A stretch of 32,115 bases of DNA from a virus (IMGVR_UViG_3300030397_000910:1-32115), one strand, 5' to 3'; positions 1,719 through 29,946 are shown, numbered from the stretch's first letter. Numbers and translations are program-made. The notes: generated by a model not told the origin, from the sequence alone.

Positions 1719-3248
1719 TTATGATAATGGCTTATATTTACGCAGGTTAAGCCGACCTTTTGTTTTAAAGCGCGTGTTATCCACAATATTATCCACAGCA
1801 TACTCAAGTGCCGTACGAAAGTGTGATGTCCAATCATGGATAGGTTTTGTCTTTGCTGATGTTGCTTGGCTTGTTTCTCGCACCTGTGGATATCGTGCGT
1901 TCTGGATTGCCTGACTAAACGTGTCATGACAGCGCTCATGCACAACCATGTTCTTCATCGCAAGTCGTACCTTGCGTATCCTTTCCTCCACTGTACTACG
2001 TTTCCCCAGGTTTATGTACACCCCGTGCTTTTCAAGCTCCTTCTTGATACTTGTCTGGAGCATCGTCTTATCCCCATTGTACGGATCCCCCCAATGCTGT
2101 GGCACCTTCCACTCCTTATGTCGCTCAATCATCTCCATCTCCCTCTCTGTGTATTTATGCACCTGAGACGCACTAGGATGCTGTCTAAGAACGAATGGTG
2201 CGAACCATGATAAATCCCCCGTATTCTTCTCAAGGGCATCTATAACGCGTATGTGCTTTGTGTGTGGATGAATCTGCAGCCAGATAATCGATGTTGGATC
2301 TTGTCCACCTTCTCCAAAGTCCCATGATGTAAACACAGGCAACTCGTCTGTGTAGTCAAACCTCTCATCCCCACCATGCTCGACCTCATCAAATTCTTTG
2401 TAGACCCTCCCTGTAACCGATGCCTCATAACTAATATCCAACTCCTGCGCTATCTCTTCAGCAGTTCTTCTATTCTTTTGCTCATTATACCACTCCTCAT
2501 CCTTCAACGGATGCAACTTCCAGTGCAGCGTATGCACATCAATGTGTGAATCATGCCGTAGTTTTGCAAAAGTGTTGTGCCTACCCTCTGGTGTAGATAC
2601 TGCTATACGACAGGGTGTAGTATCACCAAGCTTTCTCCATGAGCTTTCTCCATGGGGCCAGTATGCAAACTCGTCCAACAATGCCCACTTACGACGACCA
2701 CCCGTACCAAAGAATGCAGTCGGTGCCTCACCAACAATGCTTACCTTTGTTTCTGGGTTTAGCAACTTCATGTAGGTTGCATGCTCTGAAAGCTTAAACC
2801 CCTTGGGAAGAATCCACTTCGGCAACTTCGACACCATGTATCTCATCTTCTCAAAAAGGGAGTCCATGTCTCCTTGTGTGTCTACGTAGTTCTCATTACG
2901 TGATCCAACCTTTCCATCCCATCCCATAAACAACCAGCCCCACAGACCTACAGCAAGAACAACCCATGTGACTCCCATATCACGGGACTTTTCCACAAGC
3001 ATGTCATTGCCAGAATCTATGTGACCAACAAGGCTCTCGACAAGATCCTCCTGAAATTCATATAAAACAAACGGTCTGTGTGGATTCTTTTGTCGAGGGT
3101 CGTATGTGTAACAGAGCAGGTTGATAAACGTTACAGGACTTTTCCGACATAATTCGTATGCCATGTCCTGACTACGCTTGTCTTTACAATTAGCTAAAAA
3201 GGTCGCTCTGTCCTTCAATATGTTTTTTGTTTCCATATCTATATTCAC
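1719..3248 (-). CDS. terL: Terminase large subunit
   Basis: 509 aa with ATPase motifs LYEFQ, KSRDMGVTW, Walker B LLDEFA and STPEG, plus an RNase H-like nuclease half (SWDFG, GDP, HDWTSHFRTALEY). Confidence 0.95.
   Translation of the reverse strand: MNIDMETKNILKDRATFLANCKDKRSQDMAYELCRKSPVTFINLLCYTYDPRQKNPHRPFVLYEFQEDLVESLVGHIDSGNDMLVEKSRDMGVTWVVLAVGLWGWLFMGWDGKVGSRNENYVDTQGDMDSLFEKMRYMVSKLPKWILPKGFKLSEHATYMKLLNPETKVSIVGEAPTAFFGTGGRRKWALLDEFAYWPHGESSWRKLGDTTPCRIAVSTPEGRHNTFAKLRHDSHIDVHTLHWKLHPLKDEEWYNEQKNRRTAEEIAQELDISYEASVTGRVYKEFDEVEHGGDERFDYTDELPVFTSWDFGEGGQDPTSIIWLQIHPHTKHIRVIDALEKNTGDLSWFAPFVLRQHPSASQVHKYTEREMEMIERHKEWKVPQHWGDPYNGDKTMLQTSIKKELEKHGVYINLGKRSTVEERIRKVRLAMKNMVVHERCHDTFSQAIQNARYPQVRETSQATSAKTKPIHDWTSHFRTALEYAVDNIVDNTRFKTKGRLNLRKYKPLS
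1777..1797 (+). promoter_or_regulatory. Tandem perfect DnaA-box consensus (TTATCCACA x2) inside the terL 3' end
   Basis: TTATCCACA at 1777-1785 and 1789-1797. It could be a by-product of the VDNIVDN codons. Confidence 0.35.
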
Positions 3249-5249: not shown

Positions 5250-5600
5250 CTACTTCAGTGATGTGCCTCGTTTGCCCTTGGGCCATAGCTTCCGTGCACT
5301 CCAGTAACTAGGAGAGAACTTGTCATTGATGACTTTCTTTCCTGACTTATTCTTAATCTTTGAGTGTCGGGCCATAAATGCCTTTCTTTTTGAAGCACTA
5401 GTGTTTTGTTTCGCACTCGATGATCCAAAGTGCACCAACTTAAATTCATTACCCTTCTTCGCTAACACCATTCCCTTTTTACCAGGACGTGTAGACTTTA
5501 CAGGTTTATTGAATCCAGGGAACGATTTTCCCCTATACGTTATCTTTCCCTTTTCTCGTTTAACACTTGATACTTTTGGCATAGGAGAGGTTAATAACAT
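5250..5600 (-). CDS. Basic protein resembling the DUF5754-like viral family
   Basis: Pattern STRPGKKGMV...KLVHFG...KRKAFMARH...KFSPSYWSARKLW. Start is at 5600 or 5582. Confidence 0.7.
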   Translation of the reverse strand: MLLTSPMPKVSSVKREKGKITYRGKSFPGFNKPVKSTRPGKKGMVLAKKGNEFKLVHFGSSSAKQNTSASKRKAFMARHSKIKNKSGKKVINDKFSPSYWSARKLWPKGKRGTSLK

Positions 5601-5604
5601 CTAT

Positions 5605-5635
5605 AGTCATTATACTATACCCATGCAAAGGAAGT
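5605..5635 (-). promoter_or_regulatory. Putative promoter (-10 TATAAT) for the packaging/late transcript
   Basis: Minus-strand gtatagTATAATgac at 5609-5614, just upstream of the first gene of the long minus-strand operon. No correctly spaced -35. Confidence 0.45.
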
Positions 5636-5639
5636 GGGG

Positions 5640-5980
5640 AAGCAATAGAGAAGTATCCCTAGCGTAGGGCTAGAGTTTATATGAAGAGATTCTTTATCAG
5701 GGTCGCGGATTTCCAAGGGAATACTAGGAACCTAGAGCATGGCTCTGCTGTTCTCATGCAAAGTATAGCGGGTATAGCTTTGGCATAGACCTTTCGTGGA
5801 CCCGGTCATCCTGTAATCCACGTGCTGTTACGCATTCGTTCTATGGTATCTGCCTATTGGCAATGACGGTTATCGGGGGTGTCCCGAAGCATCGGTAATA
5901 AAGAACTAACCTGCCCTGCTTCTACCTAGTTCGTAGGCGGCTGTCTTGTGTTGAGGAAGCCTTTGAGAAGAAGCTCCGTA
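5640..5980 (-). ncRNA. Candidate structured non-coding RNA or replication origin
   Basis: About 350 nt without a credible ORF and dense in short inverted repeats (TCGGG/CCCGA, TGCC/GGCA, CGTGGAT/GTCCACG, CAAAG/CTTTG, AGAGC/GCTCT, CCCT/AGGG). Confidence 0.4.
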
Positions 5981-5982
5981 AT

Positions 5983-6084
5983 AAAAAACAACAACTCTGT
6001 TCTTCCTTCTAGCTGTGAACGGCCTTAGCAACCGCGCGGATTGCTCCGCAAAAGAAGGAATAACAAAATTGTTGTTGAGCTAAG
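5983..6084 (-). ncRNA. c4-antisense-like three-stem-junction RNA followed by a U tract
   Basis: A 24-bp closing stem (5987-6010/6053-6076, two of three mismatches are G-U on the minus strand) encloses GCGGA-GCAA-UCCGC (GNRA loop) and CGGUU-GCUAA-GGCCG. GCUAAG in the second hairpin is complementary to CUUAGC just upstream (6079-6084). Confidence 0.6.
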
Positions 6085-6085
6085 A

Positions 6086-6133
6086 TTTTCCACATACTGA
6101 TAATCTCATCTCCACAGAGATTGTCAATCCACA
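6086..6133 (-). promoter_or_regulatory. Putative promoter (TTGACA at 6122-6127) overlapped by three degenerate DnaA-box-like TCCACA repeats
   Basis: TTTTCCACA at 6086, ATCTCCACA at 6108 and CAATCCACA at 6125. Perfect -35 on the minus strand with a weak -10. Confidence 0.4.
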
Positions 6134-6143
6134 AACGAGTAGT

Positions 6144-6161
6144 CCCCTTCCGTAGAAGGGG
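6144..6161 (-). terminator. Stable hairpin closing the microprotein cassette
   Basis: CCCCUUC-UACG-GAAGGGG (cUACGg tetraloop) just after the stop of 6179..6361. No clear U tract. Confidence 0.45.
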
Positions 6162-6178
6162 GAGCGTGAGCGAGTGGC

Positions 6179-6361
6179 CTATTTTCTGGGCCGAGCTTTG
6201 GCCTTTTTCGTTTGCGTTGCTGCTTCAATTGCTTTCTTATCCTCATCGACTGCCTTACATGCGTTACAGATTCCAACTCCTTGTCCAAACTTTGATGGCC
6301 GTTCTTCTACTTTGATGAAGCGATCGCACCATCCACAGAAGATTTTGGTTTGAGGGTACAT
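6179..6361 (-). CDS. Cys4 zinc-binding microprotein C
   Basis: 60 aa, KIFCGWCDRFIK...GICNAC. SD GAAGGAGG-aacc-ATG. Confidence 0.75.
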   Translation of the reverse strand: MYPQTKIFCGWCDRFIKVEERPSKFGQGVGICNACKAVDEDKKAIEAATQTKKAKARPRK

Positions 6362-6522
6362 GGTTCCTCCTTCAGGATGTTGGGAATAAGTCGGACTTCC
6401 AATGTTTCTCCTTGTTCAAACTTGTTCTCACATTTTTTGCAAAGGGATCCTCCATTGAGTGTTGGTGGATACTTCAGCGGGGGATTCACTTCCTTCATGC
6501 AAAATAGGCACAGAATCTTCAT
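6307..6522 (-). CDS. Cys4 zinc-binding microprotein B
   Basis: 71 aa from ATG 6522, MKILCLFCMK...GSLCKKC. Purine-rich GGGAGAAAAGGA upstream. Confidence 0.65.
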   Translation of the reverse strand: MKILCLFCMKEVNPPLKYPPTLNGGSLCKKCENKFEQGETLEVRLIPNILKEEPCTLKPKSSVDGAIASSK

Positions 6523-6694
6523 TCCTTTTCTCCCGTTGTTGTTGGATTCTCTTGTTCCTGCACCATGTACAAGTCTTCTTCTCAAGCCATGGATCCTCTT
6601 CAACAAAGAACATCCGTTGCTGCACGGAGTCTATAGGGTGTTTGCCCATATTTCTCCTACAGTATCGACAAAAAACTTCTCTTGTTTTGTACAT
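6428..6694 (-). CDS. Cys4 zinc-binding microprotein A
   Basis: 88 aa from ATG 6694, EVFCRYCRR...KTCTWC. SD AAAGGAGG-agtt-ATG. Confidence 0.7.
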   Translation of the reverse strand: MYKTREVFCRYCRRNMGKHPIDSVQQRMFFVEEDPWLEKKTCTWCRNKRIQQQREKRNEDSVPILHEGSESPAEVSTNTQWRIPLQKM

Positions 6695-6850
6695 AACTCC
6701 TCCTTTGGTAAAGGGTAGCATATAAAAGTATCCCCTCCGCAGCGACGTGGAGGGGATGGATGATGGATTCTTTGGAAACAACTTAGGAGGGTACCTAAAG
6801 TTATGGAGAATCCAGTTTACGGGGGTCCCGGTAAGGGATGATTATAACTA
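6695..6850 (-). promoter_or_regulatory. TATAAT box and structured 5' leader of microprotein cassette A-C
   Basis: TATAAT near 6841-6846, hairpins GGAUUCU/AGAAUCC (~6764-6812) and AUCCCCUCC/GGAGGGGAU (6730-6757), and a CCUUU/AAAGG stem over the SD. Confidence 0.55.
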
Positions 6851-6858
6851 TGCCACGA

Positions 6859-6990
6859 TCAATCTTTTTTATCAACCCCCTGCATAACCTGCTTGTAGCA
6901 TTTCTCGCACATCCCGTGTGATATTGTATTTGGCTTATCGCTTTCCTTTTTCCTAATAAATTTCTTGCACCAAGAACAAATAACTTTCAC
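6859..6990 (-). CDS. Cys4 zinc-binding microprotein D
   Basis: Hand-translated, 43 aa: MKVICSWCKKFIRKKESDKPNTISHGMCEKCYKQVMQGVDKKD*. SD TAAGGAGG-atac-GTG. Confidence 0.75.
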   Translation of the reverse strand: MKVICSWCKKFIRKKESDKPNTISHGMCEKCYKQVMQGVDKKD

Positions 6991-7077
6991 GTATCCTCCT
7001 TAGAAGCAAAAGCCCCCAGTTACGGAGGCTGCTGCTTTCACGATATGCACATCCTAGTGGCGGAGTATGCGTTGACA

Positions 7078-7215
7078 TTATAACTGTTCTCTGTAGTATT
7101 TCCAGGCTGTACGCACTACTCTTGAGATATTTACCTCACCTAAATCTGTTTCTTTGGCATGTTGTCGCATCTCTTCGTATACCTCGTCTGGAATTGTTAC
7201 TGTTATTCTCTTCAT
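7078..7215 (-). CDS. Ribbon-helix-helix (CopG/Arc/MetJ-like) regulator
   Basis: Hand-translated, 45 aa: MKRITVTIPDEVYEEMRQHAKETDLGEVNISRVVRTAWKYYREQL*. Alternating beta strand, helix, then S-x-V-V-R-x-A helix. First gene left of the divergent promoters. Confidence 0.8.
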   Translation of the reverse strand: MKRITVTIPDEVYEEMRQHAKETDLGEVNISRVVRTAWKYYREQL

Positions 7216-7290
7216 GTTTTTATTTACTTATCCACATCATATATTATATTATTGGTGTTGACAAGGTATTACTCAGTATGCTAGTATTAA
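7216..7290. promoter_or_regulatory. Divergent promoter region with a perfect DnaA box
   Basis: Plus strand TTGACA(7258)-N18-TAGTAT(7282). Minus strand TATAAT near 7243-7248. TTATCCACA at 7228-7236. AT-rich. Confidence 0.65.
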
Positions 7291-7413
7291 GGCAGACAGA
7301 AAGAGAGCGGCAACAATCTACTTACACCGCATCTCAACTGCCTACAAAATATAGTACTAGTCTACTCGATATACGGTAGTCCGGTGCACAAAGACTCTTT
7401 AACAAAAACAAAT

Positions 7414-7569
7414 ATGTTCGAGAAAGCAGTACCTGTAATGTTCCTGGCACTTGTCGGAGTACTATTCTTCGCAGCAGCCATGTGGGCAATACAGAGCAGT
7501 TCACTCCTATCATCAAATTGTAGTGATGGTTGGTGCGATAAGGACGGAATTGTAATCGACTATAAGTAA
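7414..7569 (+). CDS. Small single-pass membrane protein
   Basis: 51 aa from ATG 7414 (after aacaaaaacaaat), with a hydrophobic helix then CSDGWC. Confidence 0.6.
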   Translation: MFEKAVPVMFLALVGVLFFAAAMWAIQSSSLLSSNCSDGWCDKDGIVIDYK

Positions 7570-7573
7570 AACT

Positions 7574-7792
7574 ATGAACAACTCACGAGTACATCCATTT
7601 ATGCAGCAGTATCTTGATAGCATCCTTGCTGCACAAGACATGCGGGAAACAGAGGCACTTATCACTGAGTCAGAGGAAACGCTTGATAAGCTCCACGACA
7701 CAGTACAGGATGTCCAAGATGACGACTTTGACCTGTACCTCAGCAATGACCCATCAGTACCAGAATCAACAACGCACGTAGAAGTAGAGTAA
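7574..7792 (+). CDS. Acidic hypothetical protein
   Basis: 72 aa, D/E-rich, tightly packed in the operon. Confidence 0.65.
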   Translation: MNNSRVHPFMQQYLDSILAAQDMRETEALITESEETLDKLHDTVQDVQDDDFDLYLSNDPSVPESTTHVEVE

Positions 7793-8080
7793 TGAACAAT
7801 ATCAACGCAACATCAATTAAGCTAGAGTCCGACAGAGTCCGACAGAGACCTACGGAATCTTGCAGATCACTTTATCGAAGACGGATACCAGCTTGCAGAT
7901 CAGTTTGAGCAGTACGTCCGTGATCTTGATATGCACCTCTCAGAAATGATTGTCCTAGCGACTGACACAAAACGATTTGTGGTGATGCGTGGGAATGACA
8001 TTCATGTGTACAGAGATAACGCAATAACGGTAGATGAATTTCTAAGTCGACACGATGACAAAGGAAAAGAAAGTAACTAA
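7792..8080 (+). pseudogene. 92-aa hypothetical gene frameshifted by a 10-bp tandem duplication
   Basis: AGAGTCCGAC is duplicated at 7824-7843. Removing one copy gives an uninterrupted ORF (MNNINATSIKLESDRDLRNLADHFIEDGY...DDKGKESN*) that fills the gap. Confidence 0.7.
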
Positions 8081-8693
8081 GTGGGATCAGTGGAATACAA
8101 AAATCAAAGAGATTCGTAAAAACCTTGAGAGTGGAGTTGACTATGTCGCAATACGTGGCAATGACACACTCACCAAGGCTGGTGCCGAGAAGCTTGCATT
8201 TGTGTTCGACATCTCAATCAACATTGAAATGATGAGAGAAAATCAAACATTTTATTTCGAGGCAACTGCAGTATCAGAAGGAAAGGCAGCAAGCGTTGGA
8301 CGAGGGGCATGTACTGCACAAGAGAAGGACAATAACATCAACACTGCTATTAAGATGGGGCAGAAGCGAGCATATGTTGATGTAGTGATCCGACACCTTG
8401 GACTATCCAGCTTGTTTACACAGGACATTGAAGAGCATGGATACATCAAGGACAATCCAAAGGAACAGCTACAGACAATGGTGAATGAGGTGCCTCCACC
8501 AGGTGCGCCTCCAGGGGAAGTGTTCTACGAGCCATTCAATAATGATGGCAGTGAGAACTGTAAGTGTGGAAAGAAGATGGAGCTGAAGACTGGTAAGTCG
8601 AAGACAGGTAAGCCATACAAGCAGCTACGATGCCCAGATTATAAGTGGACAGGGAAAGAAGATCCAAATCACGATGCAAAGTTTATTAAGTAA
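8055..8693 (+). CDS. Putative single-strand annealing/recombination protein with C-terminal zinc ribbon
   Basis: Motifs GVDY...TLTKAGAEKL...NTAIKMGQKRAYVDVV...LFTQDIE recall phage annealase-like proteins. C-terminal CKCG...GKPYKQLRCP...H. Confidence 0.65.
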   Translation: MTKEKKVTKWDQWNTKIKEIRKNLESGVDYVAIRGNDTLTKAGAEKLAFVFDISINIEMMRENQTFYFEATAVSEGKAASVGRGACTAQEKDNNINTAIKMGQKRAYVDVVIRHLGLSSLFTQDIEEHGYIKDNPKEQLQTMVNEVPPPGAPPGEVFYEPFNNDGSENCKCGKKMELKTGKSKTGKPYKQLRCPDYKWTGKEDPNHDAKFIK

Positions 8694-8699
8694 ATCTTA

Positions 8700-8867
8700 A
8701 TGAAATACGAATATAAAATTGTTTGGGGTTTCTCTAAACACCTACAGGACGAGCTAAATAAGCTTGGAAAAAGAGGTTGGGTTGCAGTGTCGCATTCATC
8801 TGTTTACAGAGGAGAGCAAATTGAAGCAGGATCAGAGGTACTTATGATGAGAAATAAAGGAGAATAA
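8700..8867 (+). CDS. DUF4177-like small protein
   Basis: Hand-translated MKYEYKIV...LQDELNKLGKRGWVAVS...LMMR, matching the YEYK...LNxLGxxGWxxV pattern. Confidence 0.7.
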   Translation: MKYEYKIVWGFSKHLQDELNKLGKRGWVAVSHSSVYRGEQIEAGSEVLMMRNKGE

Positions 8868-8892
8868 AGCCATAAAAATTAACACAAAAAGA

Positions 8893-9030
8893 ATGGCAAA
8901 AAGACTAGATCCAGAAGTAAAAGTACTTCGACAGTTCCTTAAAGACTCAGAGAAGCTAGCTCGACGAGCACGAAAGGAGCTTGAGAAGATCGCAAAGAAG
9001 ACAGCAAAATCAACAGTACGGAAGAAGTAA
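8893..9030 (+). CDS. Basic 45-aa protein
   Basis: MAKRLDPEVKVLRQFLKDSEKLARRARKELEKIAKKTAKSTVRKK*, after an A-rich leader. Confidence 0.6.
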   Translation: MAKRLDPEVKVLRQFLKDSEKLARRARKELEKIAKKTAKSTVRKK

Positions 9031-9033
9031 AAG

Positions 9034-9326
9034 TCTTCCCCAGGTGGGATGAACAGTTGTCCCACTACGGGAGTATTATTACTCCACCAATACTTGCCCA
9101 ACAGGGTGAGCTGGAAAAGATTACTACGACTGTATTAGTGCAGGTTTTACAGTTGCCTGTAACGGACTGACCACGAGTCACCGCTCAACGATGCTTATCG
9201 CGTAATCTATTCCTTTATTGGTAGCTGAGATGACACAGGGTTAGGCAGGGGGAATGTCGATCTCCCTGCTGATACCACAACTTTCAATATGATACGTTTG
9301 AATGGGTTCAACCAAAGGAGGTTCCT
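9034..9326 (+). ncRNA. Candidate structured RNA (two multi-stem junctions, a pseudoknot and a hairpin), leader of microproteins E and F
   Basis: Junction 1 at 9034-9120, junction 2 at 9119-9207, hairpin at 9245-9269. G-U pairs favour the plus strand. No credible plus-strand ORF. Confidence 0.55.
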
Positions 9327-9479
9327 ATGAATCCATGTGTAGGATGTAAGTACTTTCGCAATTGTCCACAGAGACACCACAAACAACTCTGTAAGGACTA
9401 TAGAAAAGTCCCAAAGAAACAGGAGGAGGCAAACAAGAAATGGATGCAAAGACCACTCAGGAGAAAGATGCGACGGTAA
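9327..9479 (+). CDS. Cys4 microprotein E
   Basis: Hand-translated, 50 aa: MNPCVGCKYFRNCPQRHHKQLCKDYRK... SD AAAGGAGG-ttcct-ATG. Confidence 0.7.
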   Translation: MNPCVGCKYFRNCPQRHHKQLCKDYRKVPKKQEEANKKWMQRPLRRKMRR

Positions 9480-9625
9480 ACTACTGCGACGACTGTTCCC
9501 ACTCGACCAACTGTTTAGCATTTCGCTTGATGAAAGATCGCGAACACTGCTGGAACAAAACAACTGCTAGAAAAAGGGGCGTCGTTTCCGTCGGGTATTT
9601 GAGACATTACAAACCCGTCCGCTAG
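9440..9625 (+). CDS. Cys4 microprotein F
   Basis: 61 aa, NYCDDCSHSTNC...HC, with the same C-x2-C-x5-C spacing as E. AGGAGGAGG upstream. Confidence 0.6.
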   Translation: MDAKTTQEKDATVNYCDDCSHSTNCLAFRLMKDREHCWNKTTARKRGVVSVGYLRHYKPVR

Positions 9626-9682
9626 ATAAAGCGTAATAACCGTTCCGAGAGTACGTAACTCTCAACTCCTTTAAAAACAAAT

Positions 9683-9862
9683 ATGTTGCACAAAAAGAAA
9701 TATCTCATACAAAAGAAGCGGGACTTCCAAGAGGCAGAGAATTACTGGAGGGAGCAATGGTTTGCACGGGGACGATCAGAAGACCATGACGAAGCAGATA
9801 GGTGGCTTTTGAGACAGCGAGTAGTAGAAGAAATTTTAAGTGAAATGTATGGAACAAAATAA
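9683..9862 (+). CDS. Hypothetical 59-aa protein
   Basis: Hand-translated MLHKKKYLIQKKRDFQEAENYWREQWF... It has the same aaaaacaaatATGTT start context as 7414. Confidence 0.6.
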   Translation: MLHKKKYLIQKKRDFQEAENYWREQWFARGRSEDHDEADRWLLRQRVVEEILSEMYGTK

Positions 9863-10001
9863 AAAGATAGAGTGTTGGAACTGTCACGAAACATTTACAA
9901 TGTACGACCCAATTACCAAGAACCTTCGTGAAAATCTTATTCGGTGTAAGCGATGTGCTGCACAAGAAGAAGCAAAGACATGGGCGCAATACCAATGGTA
10001 A
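9849..10001 (+). CDS. Small zinc-ribbon protein (no SD)
   Basis: MEQNKKIECWNCHETF...IRCKRC..., 50 aa, overlapping both neighbours. Confidence 0.6.
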   Translation: MEQNKKIECWNCHETFTMYDPITKNLRENLIRCKRCAAQEEAKTWAQYQW

Positions 10002-10225
10002 GCATAGAGGATGACAAGGATCTTAAGGATCTTCGTGAGGAATACCGATACGAAAAGCGATACCTCCATGAAACACAGATGACAATCCATGATGCGAAGG
10101 AACTTGGGATAGACCCACATCCTCTGCCAGATTTATGGCATATTCATAACGAACGAAGGATTTATTTACAGAAAAGAATAGGACACATAATGCACAAGTA
10201 TGGACATAATGAAACCAAGCAATAA
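9995..10225 (+). CDS. Hypothetical protein
   Basis: ORF 9953..10225, with the likely start at ATG 9995 (MVSIEDDKDL...). Confidence 0.55.
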   Translation: MVSIEDDKDLKDLREEYRYEKRYLHETQMTIHDAKELGIDPHPLPDLWHIHNERRIYLQKRIGHIMHKYGHNETKQ

Positions 10226-10379
10226 TAAGTGTGAGTGCCGATACACGGAGAAGGAGTACAGAACAATCACTAAGCTAGTGACAAGCGTAAAACAACTCTG
10301 GGCAGTTAACCTTGGAGTAGTGTTTATGATGCTGATGATTGGCGTAGCTCTATTCTCTATCATTACAATGATTAGATAA
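10209..10379 (+). CDS. Small membrane protein
   Basis: 56 aa with a C-terminal hydrophobic helix. TAATG coupling to the next gene. Confidence 0.55.
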   Translation: MKPSNNKCECRYTEKEYRTITKLVTSVKQLWAVNLGVVFMMLMIGVALFSIITMIR

Positions 10380-10822
10380 TGACAAAGGATCCAGCAAAGC
10401 AATCTGTAGCATACCTTAGGCGAAAAGCTGACAGACTCCTACAAGAACTAGGAAGAAAGGTATACGACCTGTGTATAGTCTGTGGAAAACCAATGGATTG
10501 TTTGCACCACTACCACACAAAATCATCCTGTGCTGCGCTGAGATACGAGTGGGGTAACCTTATCCCCATCTGTACTGGTTGTCATAACCGACATCACAAT
10601 GGAGACCCATCTATCCACAACCAGGTAGACAGAGTTCGTGGACAACAATGGGTCGACGAACTTGAGATGATGCGACGAGAGAAGAAGGTGAAAACAAATA
10701 AGGGTTACTACAGGGAAATTATTGCAGCACTTGAGGAGGCATTAGACCATCCCAAAAAGATAGATCAGAAAGAAGATAATATACAGTCTTCTTTTTGTTT
10801 TCTTTCGTATAGGTGTAGTTGA
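10379..10822 (+). CDS. NinG/Rap-like HNH endonuclease
   Basis: KADRLL...CIVCG...HHY...ALRYEWGNLIPICTGCHNRHH. Confidence 0.8.
   Translation: MTKDPAKQSVAYLRRKADRLLQELGRKVYDLCIVCGKPMDCLHHYHTKSSCAALRYEWGNLIPICTGCHNRHHNGDPSIHNQVDRVRGQQWVDELEMMRREKKVKTNKGYYREIIAALEEALDHPKKIDQKEDNIQSSFCFLSYRCS
10768..10806. terminator. Possible terminator where the early and late transcripts converge
   Basis: AAAGAAGA/TCTTCTTT inverted repeat followed by a T-rich run. The stem is AT-rich and lies inside the end of the HNH ORF. Confidence 0.35.
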
Positions 10823-10826
10823 AGAG

Positions 10827-11030
10827 TTATTTCCCGTCAGAACCAAGGCTCATGCCACTGGTTCCGTCTGCGTATCCCTGTGCTCCGAGGTAAGCAATTA
10901 CCGTGGTGATAATCGTCTTAATTGCGAGATCCCACTCAATCTCTCCTGAGTATGCGAGGAGTGCCTGTGCTGCAAGGGCAGCAATAGTCATCCAAAGCTT
11001 GCGTGACTTGAGTCGTGCTGGCATGTTCAT
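10827..11030 (-). CDS. Holin-like protein
   Basis: 67 aa, LKSRKLW plus two TM segments and AYLGAQGYAD. Downstream of the endolysin. Confidence 0.75.
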   Translation of the reverse strand: MNMPARLKSRKLWMTIAALAAQALLAYSGEIEWDLAIKTIITTVIAYLGAQGYADGTSGMSLGSDGK

Positions 11031-11032
11031 AC

Positions 11033-12118
11033 TTACTTCTTAAATATTTTCTTATATAGAAGGGAAACAATGTCGTTCATTGACATCTTCTGAACCTTGT
11101 CGTTCTTGATCGCATCCTTGCTTTGCTTGTGATTCTCAGCCTGTGCAATGAGTCGTCGCTCAAGATCCTGCTTTGCAAGAAGGCATTGCTGCTGTTTCTT
11201 CTGGAGTGCCTGAACATTTCTCTGAGATGCAACGTAGTTTACATTCAGCTCCTTTCTTGCCTTCTCTAGGTCACCAATAAGTGATGTTGCGCCTGCGAGT
11301 CGCTCTTCGCATGGAGCACCCCCCTTGTTTTCTATCTGGAGCTTAAGTGCTTCAATCTCTTTCTTAAATTCTTTGCCTTTATTGCGGCACTCTTGCAACT
11401 CCTTAGTAAGCGTCTCTACCTCTCGAACACGATCGTCATACCAAGATACTTTGTTCTTTGAGGTTTCAAATTGTGGATCATTAACAAGATCACGCAATGT
11501 ATCAAGAACCTTCGAGCTTTCAAACGACTTCTTTTGGTAGTAGAGAACCCAATCATCAGCTGCTTCCTTATCCTCCCACGCACCATTGTCATCTGTCTGA
11601 TGTCCCCACAGTTCAGCCAAATGCTGCCACTGTTCATCTGTAAGTTGTTGATTTTCTGACATATCTGTTTCTTCAATAACAACAGTTAGTCCAAACCCAT
11701 GTCCCTTCCTGTTGGTTCGGTTTGCGAATAGAACTTTCCCTGGTACTGGACTATAGACTGGTTGATTCATATCTGCATTCCCAGATCCTGGCCCATTAAT
11801 ATCTGCACCTGGGTGATACACACCCTCAGTGGTCTTTTGTGTATGACTCCATCCACTATGATGCCAATTAGTGACATTGCTCTGACCTTTGCGGGTGTAG
11901 TTACTTGGGGGAATGTACTCATCTCGTACCCTCTGTCGCGACCACCCCTTGACCCAGTAGTAGTAATTAGAGGGCTTCTTCTTGATGATATCAAAATGGA
12001 GATGTGAGCTCGTACTAAATCCAGTAGTTCCCATATCTCCAATGTGTTGCCCCGACTGTATTACGTCCCCCTCCTTAACGTGCACCTTATTGAGGTGTGC
12101 AAAACGTAAGTATGGCAT
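11033..12118 (-). CDS. Endolysin: circularly permuted M23 peptidase with coiled-coil tail
   Basis: FAHL...GQHIGDMGTTGFSTSSHLHF (residues 6-42) precedes YHPGADIN...PVYSPVPGKV...GFGLTVVI (101-148). Long heptad-rich C-terminus. Confidence 0.8.
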   Translation of the reverse strand: MPYLRFAHLNKVHVKEGDVIQSGQHIGDMGTTGFSTSSHLHFDIIKKKPSNYYYWVKGWSRQRVRDEYIPPSNYTRKGQSNVTNWHHSGWSHTQKTTEGVYHPGADINGPGSGNADMNQPVYSPVPGKVLFANRTNRKGHGFGLTVVIEETDMSENQQLTDEQWQHLAELWGHQTDDNGAWEDKEAADDWVLYYQKKSFESSKVLDTLRDLVNDPQFETSKNKVSWYDDRVREVETLTKELQECRNKGKEFKKEIEALKLQIENKGGAPCEERLAGATSLIGDLEKARKELNVNYVASQRNVQALQKKQQQCLLAKQDLERRLIAQAENHKQSKDAIKNDKVQKMSMNDIVSLLYKKIFKK

Positions 12119-29013: not shown

Positions 29014-29946
29014 TTACACTGTACCGTCTGATCCATAAAGACCTTCCCATGAGATTGTCGCAACAACCTCTCGGAACTTTGCCTTATAGATATAATCGTT
29101 GTTTGCCTGGTAGATGCGGTCAACAAGATCAGTTGTAAGATCTTCTCGAACATATCGCTTCACTCCATGCATTGCTGATAGGAGGAACCATGCGGTGTCT
29201 GAACCACCTGCTGCAGCACCAAGATATGGAGACGTCTTCACGGTCAATCCATAGCGTGAGCTGTAGAAGTTGATGTCATTGTTGTCTGTGCCACTTCGTA
29301 GTTCTGAATCTGTGATCTCAACAGCATCTTTGTAAAGAGCCGCTGGGACAAGAAGGCAAGCTGCCTTGTGTCCTGCAACAGTTCCAGACTGGTCTAGCTG
29401 CTCCATAAGAGCAACAATTCCAGTTTCTAGAGAAGCTTCTGTCAATGCAGCTGTATCCAAGTTGTCTACAGTATCACCACTCAGTGTTGTGTGGGTTGCA
29501 TTGAAGAGTGAGCTTCCGTCATGAGTTGTTTGTGTTGTGAACCCATTTCGGAAAGCTGCGAATGCATTCTTTGTTCGGGTAATGCGTCCCTTGCGTGCCA
29601 TGTCACGGATCATTGACTGAACTGTGTCATGCTCGTCGTCAGCAAAGTACTCTTCTGAGATACGCACAGCTTGTGCGAACTTTGTGACATTGTGTGTTTG
29701 CTGGTCACCAACCCGTGGGCTGTACTCAGCAAGGTTTGCCTGTTCTGCGGTTGAGCTCCATTCGCCAACTCCCTCGAATACTTCAGTAACAATTGCACCC
29801 TTGTCTGTGCTTGTCTGCATGAAGACTTGTGGGTCTAGTGCAGTAGCGACATCAGGGGTCATTTGCTCCTGAAATTCCATGTTAAACACTTCATCGAGAG
29901 CAGTTTTGACTACATTTGGATTCAATCCACCTGATAGACCTGCCAT
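29014..29946 (-). CDS. Major capsid protein (HK97 fold, Mu gpT-like family)
   Basis: 310 aa: KFAQAVRISEE...DD, DGSSLFNATH, LLVPAAL, SPYL...TAWFLL, WEGLYGSDG. Confidence 0.9.
   Translation of the reverse strand: MAGLSGGLNPNVVKTALDEVFNMEFQEQMTPDVATALDPQVFMQTSTDKGAIVTEVFEGVGEWSSTAEQANLAEYSPRVGDQQTHNVTKFAQAVRISEEYFADDEHDTVQSMIRDMARKGRITRTKNAFAAFRNGFTTQTTHDGSSLFNATHTTLSGDTVDNLDTAALTEASLETGIVALMEQLDQSGTVAGHKAACLLVPAALYKDAVEITDSELRSGTDNNDINFYSSRYGLTVKTSPYLGAAAGGSDTAWFLLSAMHGVKRYVREDLTTDLVDRIYQANNDYIYKAKFREVVATISWEGLYGSDGTV

Follow-up and report, generated by a model that had tools for sequence, protein, structure and literature searches.

Six Cys-rich ORFs carry SD sequences in an otherwise SD-less phage

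Why would a phage whose genes otherwise start without a Shine-Dalgarno (SD) sequence place strong SDs before a few tiny ORFs, and for which ribosomes would these be meant? The question is raised by a viral stretch of 32,115 nt (IMGVR_UViG_3300030397_000910; the whole stretch is called the window here), in which a preliminary description had listed six such ORFs; all were located again at the same positions. On the minus strand lie Z1 (6179..6361, 60 aa), Z2 (6307..6522, 71 aa), Z3 (6428..6694, 88 aa) and Z4 (6859..6990, 43 aa, with a GTG start), and on the plus strand Z5 (9327..9479, 50 aa) and Z6 (9440..9625, 61 aa). Measured overlaps of 95 nt (Z3/Z2), 55 nt (Z2/Z1) and 40 nt (Z5/Z6) match the 40 to 95 nt described. 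Four Cys had been ascribed to every ORF, which is correct for Z1 and Z4, for Z3 (CxxC...CxxC), for the very basic Z5 (C-x2-C-x5-C-x8-C; 17 K/R versus 3 D/E) and for Z6 (C-x2-C-x5-C-x11-C) but not for Z2, which has five. Cys4 by itself is no sign of an SD, since the CxxC pattern is also present in 4 of the 85 small ORFs of the window that lack an SD.

Both the sequence and the pairing energies agree with the SDs reported previously. AGGAGG precedes Z1, Z3, Z4 (as AAGGAGG, 4 nt upstream), Z5 and Z6, with energies of -11.6 to -12.3 kcal/mol, and Z2 has the weak SD GGGAG (-7.4); the distance to the start is 4-5 nt for Z1, Z3, Z4 and Z5 and 10-13 nt to the ATG of Z6. Scoring 43 further start entries in the window (a set in which terS is counted twice and one start is misplaced by 3 nt) gave a strongest pairing of -5.2 and no SD site, as had been claimed for the other starts. 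AGGAGG occurs at SD distance before 16 of 2181 ATG/GTG triplets in the window, and before 5/6 Z starts versus 0/41 others (Fisher, p=4e-6), a post hoc comparison in which the six ORFs had been picked for the SD trait. GC and GC3 are 0.37-0.48 and 0.41-0.60 in the Z genes and 0.43-0.47 and 0.40-0.47 in four control genes; thus, the Z genes are not foreign in GC (genome, 0.44).

Leaders, promoters and flanking hairpins

Hairpin-rich leaders of 90-300 nt had been proposed for the three units, and the lengths are borne out, although structure exceeds chance only in part. The Z4 leader (6991..7077, minus strand, 87 nt) has a terminator-like hairpin with a short U-tract (7030-7011) directly before the SD, and its fold is not above chance (z -1.65, dinucleotide shuffle). 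The Z3 leader (6695..6858, minus strand, 164 nt) contains a perfect TATAAT (6846-6841) that lacks a good -35, together with a long hairpin and a 9-bp GC hairpin with a U-rich tail, and 6760-6860 folds at z = -2.9. Serial hairpins make up the Z5 leader (9031..9326, plus strand, 296 nt), with the strongest fold at 9028-9110 (z = -3.7); like the Z3 leader, it ends in AAAGGAGG. Other pieces do not fold above chance (z -1.7, -1.0 and +0.45), and the non-SD leader 7290-7415 folds too (z -3.4). Comparison of the three leaders revealed no repeats beyond chance-level pairs. The predicted unpaired probability of the SDs is 0.26-0.57.

A GC hairpin with a UACG loop (6141..6161, minus strand; z -2.1), likely a 3' end protector or terminator, closes the Z3-Z2-Z1 unit, and a small, weak hairpin (9647..9663, plus strand; z -1.85) closes the Z5-Z6 unit; both have poor U-tracts. 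The gene that follows Z5-Z6, starting at 9683, lacks an SD. Directly downstream of Z3-Z2-Z1 is a sigma70-type promoter (6127-6100) with a three-way hairpin, RNA-like element carrying a U-tract (5975..6127, minus strand), the non-coding part of which (5975-6095) folds at z -4.2. Upstream of Z4, at a divergent promoter region, sits a ribbon-helix-helix regulator gene without an SD (7078..7215, minus strand; PF07878, E 1e-7). Promoter-like sites lie before Z4 (7104-7077, 10/12), before Z3 (the lone TATAAT) and at 9050 (9/12); the search gave 16 sites versus 10.7+-3.9 in shuffles. No Rfam match reached the gathering score in the window (best E 3.4 within 5500-11100), a tRNA scan found no tRNA, and folds of the whole units, made with no control fold, did not pair the two ends convincingly enough to suggest an intron or a circle.

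The Z proteins belong to two phage families

Z1-Z4 are members of one widespread, predicted zinc-finger family of phages and Z5-Z6 of another, and both are otherwise found mainly in SD-using phages. The first, WC...HG.C..C, has four invariant Cys in two CxxC motifs and a nearly invariant W and HG, and about 440 IMG/VR stretches match its pattern (Atlas clusters, 0.93-0.94). Z4 carries the complete motif; in the diverged Z1-Z3, whose identity to Z4 is only 19-26%, the four Cys and their spacing are retained but the W/HG positions vary. The family has no Pfam or PHROG name, and none of Z1-Z6 matched Pfam or PHROG above the cut-off, including toxins, bS21 and ribosomal regulators; the toxin role suggested earlier gains no support. 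Z1 had no close homologue among 1.84 billion representatives, and a word-index search with Z4 returned no candidate. Because the Z4 family is nearly absent from chromosomes (1 clear match in 401 Patescibacteria, 0 in 151 Bacillota-phylum genomes), we regard it as a phage family. The predicted Z4 model (pLDDT 87), composed of a hairpin, a strand and a helix, shows weak alignments with Fin, the anti-sigma-F factor of B. subtilis (Z 3.2, rmsd 3.2 over 43), and with the C-terminal Cys4 zinc site of Fur/PerR, as in PerR (Z 3.1, rmsd 2.1 over 35); these likenesses are far below significance (no Z above 3.2 and no Foldseek E under 1.7), and no function follows from them. For Z5 the structure model was unusable (pLDDT 58) and the Atlas recognition score fell under the reliable level.

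The phage host is probably a member of the Patescibacteria

Judged from sequence, the host is probably a member of the Patescibacteria (CPR), which are parasitic bacteria of very small size. Phage start contexts are A-rich and G-poor with U at -1 at 0.50, compared with 0.46 and 0.41 in CPR, and the contig of a related phage (capsid 34%, E 1.6e-42) is part of a MAG, G001, whose 16S tail lacks CCUCC. Vampirovibrionales gave many partial TerL matches and were rejected as host because their start context differs (U at -1, 0.23). The phage promoters are of the sigma70 type; the divergent region has TTGACA-type sites, and 5500-11100 contains three matches to TAnnTTTG, which we take to be the Bacteroidia promoter motif. 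CCUCC is kept in 49/50 CPR 16S tails sampled phylum-wide, a figure biased toward anti-SD-bearing genomes since the 16S pattern used overlooks those without it; a wider pattern was applied only to the class of G001. No RNA run was found to hold the stretch. Contigs from three DNA runs of one study cover it with no listed differences in the cassettes, and these may be its source and are not independent.

SD-led units recur in related phages

An SD precedes 2/360 long genes in 17 records of related SD-less phages. The same split recurred among their small ORFs, with CxxC in 4/25 SD-led versus 22/1418 non-SD ORFs (OR 12, p=8e-4; window excluded). Units of promoter, SD and gene, some with a terminator, were judged by eye in G005, G006, G415 and G419, and their promoters are clear. 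In these four the SD-led units begin 10-30 nt behind the promoter, which speaks against a long structured leader as a defining part of the architecture. By a strict count, such a unit is present in 3/17 records, and most relatives lack one. The closest relative has a TerL 68% identical, on a 28.7-kb contig; the L281 contig holds only 1 kb upstream of TerL. Among 80 TerL-related loci there was no Z1-Z6 homologue and no nucleotide match to 5400-11200, and a search of viral contigs with TerL alone gave 0 loci. An SD-led HNH-like gene is common to phage G006 and chromosome G462 (41%).

SDs persist in CPR genomes whose 16S lacks the anti-SD

One subgroup of Parcubacteria has lost CCUCC (available text of PMC9297842), a loss reproduced here: 21/30 Paceibacteria-class 16S tails lack it, 14 of these wholly, with one 16S match per genome behind each call. 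A class that is SD-scarce and without CCUCC has also been described, as the accessible part of PMC10783764 relates. Nevertheless, in 800 kb from four Paceibacteria genomes without the anti-SD, GGAGG peaks 5-9 nt before ATG (48 versus 8.3 expected, p=3e-15), a peak that none of five control 5-mers shows. At this ribosome spacing, 86/865 ORFs (about 10%) are SD-led; they have their own promoter more often than other ORFs (24/86 versus 74/779, p=6e-6) and, at 100 aa or more, lack a Pfam family more often (37/74 versus 16/70, p=1e-3). The pattern SD-start-CxxC, which was not frame-locked, gave 61 matches versus 19 for controls with the pattern reversed, in the 17 genomes whose tail was read and lacks the anti-SD. 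These results support the separate initiation regime proposed for the phage and extend it to CPR-type phages and CPR chromosomes in general. Among the SD-led genes of the genomes without the anti-SD are those for a CsgG-family protein and for an outer-membrane beta-barrel (a match to PF13505 above the cut-off), although CPR have been proposed to lack an outer membrane (PMC12102498); SD-led CPR genes also include sugar-modification genes of the typical imported kind. Core genes in the set are probably false internal starts from a crude gene caller; one rpsD ORF, in G435, was called SD-led. GC3 is richer in SD-led genes of G489 (p=7e-4) and no different in the other three of the four genomes. 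Genome-wide, the leaders of SD-led genes do not fold clearly better than the rest (median z -1.5, n=9, versus -0.8, n=23). The literature found, as available in part, describes anti-SD loss and yielded no account of retained SDs or phage SD cassettes.

One CPR family keeps the SD in 12/17 ORFs listed, at 27-54% protein identity over long alignments, and its members include three paralogues in G487, which lacks the anti-SD. Most members show a consensus promoter together with a hairpin in the leader. The family is found in 14/121 genomes, a patchy distribution, with relatives on 4 Bradyrhizobium plasmids, and repeated transfer from SD-using donors or anti-SD-bearing CPR could refresh its SD. 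A boxA-like motif (a regex picked after inspection) occurs in 8/15 leaders of one family and is not enriched genome-wide (2/13 versus 1/39), and an antitermination role for the leaders was therefore dropped.

Proposed messages for partner-cell ribosomes and competing explanations

At somewhat less than even chances, we favor the reading that the three SD-bearing units are addressed to the anti-SD-bearing ribosomes of a partner cell, a route that the phage would use for small effectors. The phage would infect a CPR epibiont living on the partner, the SD would be under selection in this phage, and the Z proteins would bind zinc and act as effectors in the partner. The RNA or its DNA might reach partner ribosomes through the relaxase-less type IV secretion system of CPR (PMC12102498) or a cell-cell conduit such as that of 8.6 nm (PMC11880426), both possible routes; alternatively, partner ribosomes might enter the CPR cell. 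Flanking hairpins would stabilize a message poorly translated in its cell of origin. The reading also draws on Flavobacterium, where, in the available text of PMC13000453, ribosomes with an ablated anti-SD fail on the SD-led rpsU mRNA but still work on SD-less messages. It is rather doubtful, going further, that CPR epibionts themselves export a special set of SD-led mRNAs into the partner for translation, for example by their relaxase-less type IV secretion system, and that their phages pirate this route against the host's host; such export would explain why lineages without the anti-SD keep flawless SDs before genes for effectors, metabolism and the outer membrane. The earlier speculation about a different ribosome, that of a CPR partner cell, gains support because SDs persist at ribosome spacing where the 16S lacks the anti-SD. 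Counted against the favored reading are that SD-led leaders show no clear genome-wide excess of structure or boxA, that most related phages lack such a unit, that the SD-keeping CPR family is patchy with plasmid relatives, that sugar-modification genes of the imported kind are among the SD-led CPR genes, that SD-using phages are the main carriers of both Z families, as would be expected of imports, and that most CPR keep the anti-SD, so that the phage's host may read the SDs itself.

Imports from SD-using donors are the main rival. As ordinary phage morons, the Z genes would be imported with donor-type SDs, read by an anti-SD-bearing CPR host and active in the infected CPR cell; core CPR genes would start without an SD, and the donor-type SD would make imported accessory genes translatable at once. 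We consider this somewhat unlikely. CCUCC retention in the biased phylum-wide sample and the frequency of both Z families in SD-using phages accord with it, as do anti-SD-bearing CPR with SD-led accessory islands (7/16 long genes in L407, 6/15 in L420), the promoter and terminator of the related-phage units and the shared HNH-like gene, which points to one gene pool feeding phage and chromosome. It leaves unexplained, however, the SDs kept across diverged paralogues in genomes without the anti-SD, and it sits poorly with the absence of SDs from capsid and other abundant genes, the genome-like GC of the Z genes and the lack of a close donor sequence for Z1 and Z4.

Conditional translation inside the CPR cell, through a masked anti-SD, a ribosome subpopulation or a GGAGG-reading protein or small RNA with the leaders as part of the switch, is improbable. 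Its precedent is rpsU autoregulation (PMC13000453; PMC7797042, both as available in part), and the terminator-like hairpins directly before the Z4 and Z3 SDs, the partial pairing predicted for the SDs and the rpsD ORF of G435 would suit it. Masking, however, is impossible where CCUCC is missing from the 16S found, Parcubacteria often lack bS21 (accessible part of PMC9297842), no trans-acting SD reader is known or was found, and no riboswitch in Rfam matched. Least probable is that the cassettes are inert relics, recent imports not usefully expressed and due to decay, since their families' SD-using source, their patchiness among relatives and the GC3 of G489 are outweighed by six intact ORFs that all keep CxxC and, in five, the full SD despite the divergence of Z1-Z3, by host-like GC without a close donor, by unremarkable GC3 in three of four CPR genomes and by a CxxC enrichment that random import would not predict.

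If messages are indeed addressed to the partner, an SD before the start codon would be a one-line marker of partner-targeted genes in thousands of CPR genomes and phages, phages would be acting on the host of their own host, and expression of genes across the boundary between two prokaryotes could be tested directly in existing co-cultures. This bears on how Patescibacteria manipulate partner cells and on what cargo their essential relaxase-less secretion system carries. Even if the Z genes are morons, two-regime initiation in CPR and their phages is undescribed in the literature found and marks accessory genes.

Comparison with known systems

Phage morons are self-contained accessory genes with their own promoter and terminator. 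The Z units resemble them as small accessory genes between promoter-like sites and hairpins, patchily distributed and from families present in unrelated phages. Unlike morons, they start from a translation signal avoided elsewhere in the genome, their base composition does not set them apart from it, and genes of this class are kept in CPR lineages with ribosomes unable to pair with an SD. In SD-blind Bacteroidia, as in this phage, a strong SD is limited to special genes of an SD-less system, there one ribosomal gene, rpsU, with the anti-SD present but masked (PMC13000453; PMC7797042, available portions); here, many family-less accessory genes are involved, the anti-SD is gone in part of the lineage and the promoters are of the sigma70 type. 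The accessible parts of the accounts of Parcubacteria without the anti-SD (PMC9297842, PMC10783764) make no mention of an SD-keeping gene minority or of phage cassettes. A signal unusable by the carrier's own machinery is indicated, by sequence, for Paceibacteria chromosomes without the anti-SD. In Agrobacterium, bordered T-DNA is moved by a relaxase into plant nuclei. By analogy, the carrier's genes would bear the expression signals of the exploited cell; here no border or relaxase was found, and the recipient would be a prokaryote.

Six Shine-Dalgarno-led genes in an otherwise SD-less phage

The six small CxxC ORFs, their Shine-Dalgarno (SD) sites and their overlaps were confirmed as claimed in the preliminary description (Z4 and Z3-Z2-Z1 on the minus strand, 6179-6990; Z5-Z6 on the plus strand, 9327-9625), except that Z2 has five cysteines, contradicting the claim of four in all six, and that the Z6 SD lies 10-13 nt before its ATG. 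SD pairing energies are -11.6 to -12.3 kcal/mol for five of the ORFs and -7.4 for Z2. The claim that the remaining starts lack an SD held for the 43 other start entries scored, the strongest reaching only -5.2 kcal/mol, and AGGAGG stands upstream of only 16 of the 2181 ATG/GTG triplets in the window. Two further small CxxC genes, at 9849-10001 (plus) and about 3972-3808 (minus), have no SD; Cys-richness is therefore not strictly tied to it.

All six proteins are basic, and their motifs suggest zinc binding. Z1-Z4 can be aligned with a widespread unnamed phage family that has two CxxC motifs and occurs in about 440 IMG/VR stretches; Z1-Z3 share 19-26% identity with Z4. The arrangement C-x2-C-x5-C-x8/11-C is common to Z5, Z6 and small proteins of SD-using phages. 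Among 5.8 billion proteins, none was a word-sharing relative of Z4; for Z1, nothing but itself fell below E 1e-10 among 1.84 billion. The Z4 structure model is confident (pLDDT 87) and gave no significant structural match, the best rows being Fin (Z 3.2) and PerR (Z 3.1).

Leaders of the three units measure 87, 164 and 296 nt. Their description as hairpin-rich stands for parts of the Z3 (z -2.9) and Z5 (z -3.7) leaders, which beat dinucleotide shuffles, but not for the Z4 leader (z -1.65). Because the latter folds no better than shuffles, and a non-SD leader (7290-7415) and a non-coding element (5975-6095) do fold, leader structure is real in places yet not specific to SD units. No Rfam family matched the window. 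At 5975-6127 (minus), a TTGACA promoter precedes a three-way hairpin of about 100 nt with a GCAA-loop arm and a U-tract (z -4.2), followed at 5620-5975 by about 370 nt of further non-coding sequence, likewise without an Rfam match; it may encode a small RNA of the phage or an RNA for its replication. Elsewhere, a similar 22-nt pair (86%) with a boxA-like motif, at 7393-7420 and 9665-9694, lies immediately upstream of the SD-less starts 7414 and 9683, and these stretches may serve the early operon as antitermination sites. A 210-nt non-coding gap (10823-11032) between convergent NinG-like and M23 genes does not fold above shuffles.

The window is the full 32,115-bp record of a tailed phage, with a terminase (1719-3248, minus), a capsid gene (29014-29946), an SU10-type adaptor, an M23 lysin and a divergent early region. 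Both ends cut through portal-like coding sequence, and the genome is therefore probably nearly complete. No DNA polymerase, primase, helicase or integrase was found among the 26 window ORFs scanned, a set outside which several large ORFs lie. The window was found in three DNA runs, all from one aquatic study, and no RNA run was listed. In two of the sequencing runs (X2 and X3), contig depth over the Z5-Z6 unit (8853-9606) was about twice that of its neighbours, as over some other stretches; the module may be common to a co-occurring relative.

SD-led units in related phages

Many of the TerL relatives at 35-45% lack SDs. In 17 SD-less records of this kind, window excluded, an SD was present on 2 of 360 long genes, and the CxxC pattern occurred in 4 of 25 small ORFs led by an SD versus 22 of 1418 others (OR 12, p=8e-4; both ORF sets include spurious frames). 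The CxxC unit is absent from most of these records and present in 3 of 17 by strict count. Clear SD-led units occur in the related records G005 (promoter, AAAGGAGG, Z4-like gene, terminator), G006 and G419 (AGGAGGTGA). In an SD-less provirus, G415, a promoter and a terminator enclose three SD-led genes at L360 16025-16650, among them one for a stand-alone LuxR-type HTH protein and one for a CxxC protein. All four units have short leaders, so the proposal that long leaders define SD units is not supported.

Host and 16S tails

Full-length TerL relatives occur in MAGs of Parcubacteria, Paceibacteria, Peribacteria, Saccharibacteria and other groups, the binning of phage contigs being weak evidence. 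The window capsid protein has one match in 401 Patescibacteria (CPR) genomes, on a contig of the Paceibacteria-class MAG G001, whose 16S tail lacks CCUCC. Window start contexts are A-rich and G-poor, with U at -1 in 0.50 (22 genes only), and over these 22 genes the profile correlates at 0.59-0.61 with CPR chromosomes and SD-less phages, at 0.38 with Vampirovibrionales and at 0.42 with Z4-family phages; its correlation with the G001 phage contig is low (0.21, 21 genes). The host is probably a CPR bacterium.

CCUCC, the anti-SD (aSD), was kept in 49 of 50 16S tails of a phylum-wide CPR sample whose search pattern is biased towards aSD-bearing genomes. Of 30 tails from the class of G001, 21 lack it, 14 of them wholly, which agrees with its detection in 48% of Parcubacteria (PMC9297842). 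The chief rival to the account proposed below is that the host keeps an aSD and reads imported morons itself; the phylum-wide sample would suit it, and we consider it somewhat less likely than that account. Intermediate tails such as AUCUCCU and ACUUCUU (L444, L448, L450-L454) suggest that aSD decay in Paceibacteria may have been stepwise.

SD sites in aSD-less CPR chromosomes

Over 800 kb of four Paceibacteria genomes whose 16S tails were read and are aSD-less (G435, G487, G441, G489), GGAGG peaks 5-9 nt before ATG (48 versus 8.3 expected), with five control 5-mers flat. The SD-led ORFs number 86 of 865; a consensus promoter of their own is commoner among them (24/86 versus 74/779 non-SD ORFs), as is the lack of a Pfam family (48/86 versus 16/70 sampled from the 779); at 100 aa or longer, 37 of 74 are Pfam-less. 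They include thymidylate synthase, dCMP deaminase, a HIT protein, IscU, radical SAM enzymes and sugar-modification genes of import-like appearance, and several core genes among them are probably false internal starts. They also include a CsgG-family protein encoded on the contig that bears the aSD-less 16S, and G425 has an SD-led gene for an outer-membrane beta-barrel, although CPR are proposed to lack an outer membrane (PMC12102498). The SD-start-CxxC pattern has matches in 113 of 121 class genomes, and the 17 genomes whose tails were read as aSD-less contain 61 matches versus 19 for controls. Complete SD-led CxxC microgenes occur in G421, G437, G462 and G487; the one in G462 shares 41% identity with a small ORF from the SD-led cluster of phage G006.

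Two loci may be described separately. At L584 14321-17209 (G435), SD-led genes for thymidylate synthase, HIT and dCMP deaminase form a cluster resembling phage-type nucleotide-metabolism genes, and at L612 11048-12340 (G489) an SD-led radical SAM gene precedes an SD-led ORF for a 50-aa peptide; these two may be a modified-peptide pair.

A family of CPR proteins, unnamed and about 200 aa long, has no Pfam match. It was found in 14 of 121 class genomes and on four Bradyrhizobium plasmids but in none of 50,697 named phages. An SD of -8.4 or stronger precedes 12 of its 17 ORFs (listed from 19 loci); of the other five, one was the query, called with a wrong start, one a broken copy and one spurious, and two stayed ambiguous. 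SD-keeping members, three of them paralogues in G487, are 27-54% identical over long alignments. This speaks against one-off recent imports, but the retention is still compatible with transfer that recurs from aSD-bearing carriers. Among 13 leaders measured, two of them added by resemblance, the promoter scores 10/12 or better in 12, and 9 fold at z <= -2.8 versus mononucleotide shuffles. Leaders at L615, L617-L618, L621-L624, L627, L629 and L632-L633 combine a consensus promoter and, in many cases, a boxA-like motif with a long 20-bp hairpin and further short ones upstream of the SD; they are a candidate new structured leader RNA.

Proposed reading by the partner cell

An SD at ribosome spacing that the cell's own 16S is unable to pair with needs another reader. 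In Flavobacterium, ribosomes lacking the aSD translate SD-less messages but not an SD-led one (PMC13000453), so little product would be expected from SD-led genes in an aSD-less cell. Those of the partner cell are the nearest ribosomes to bear an aSD. CPR broadly keep a relaxase-less type IV secretion system with unknown cargo (PMC12102498), and one CPR is joined to its prey by a tube-like conduit (PMC11880426). Together, the need for another reader, the partner's ribosomes and these routes lead us to favour, tentatively, a scheme in which SD-led units would be messages destined for partner-cell ribosomes and the phage would carry such units of its own, with hairpins that may shield the RNA and ORF overlaps that may couple translation. 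Conditional reading of SD-led genes inside the CPR cell is improbable. Least probable is that the Z units are inert relics, which their patchy presence in related records would fit.

No published account of retained SDs or of partner translation was found in full-text searches of a collection that lacks most subscription papers. Loss of the aSD is itself already described in PMC9297842, PMC10783764 and PMC6107228, as is a CPR phage in 10.1101/2024.03.08.584096.
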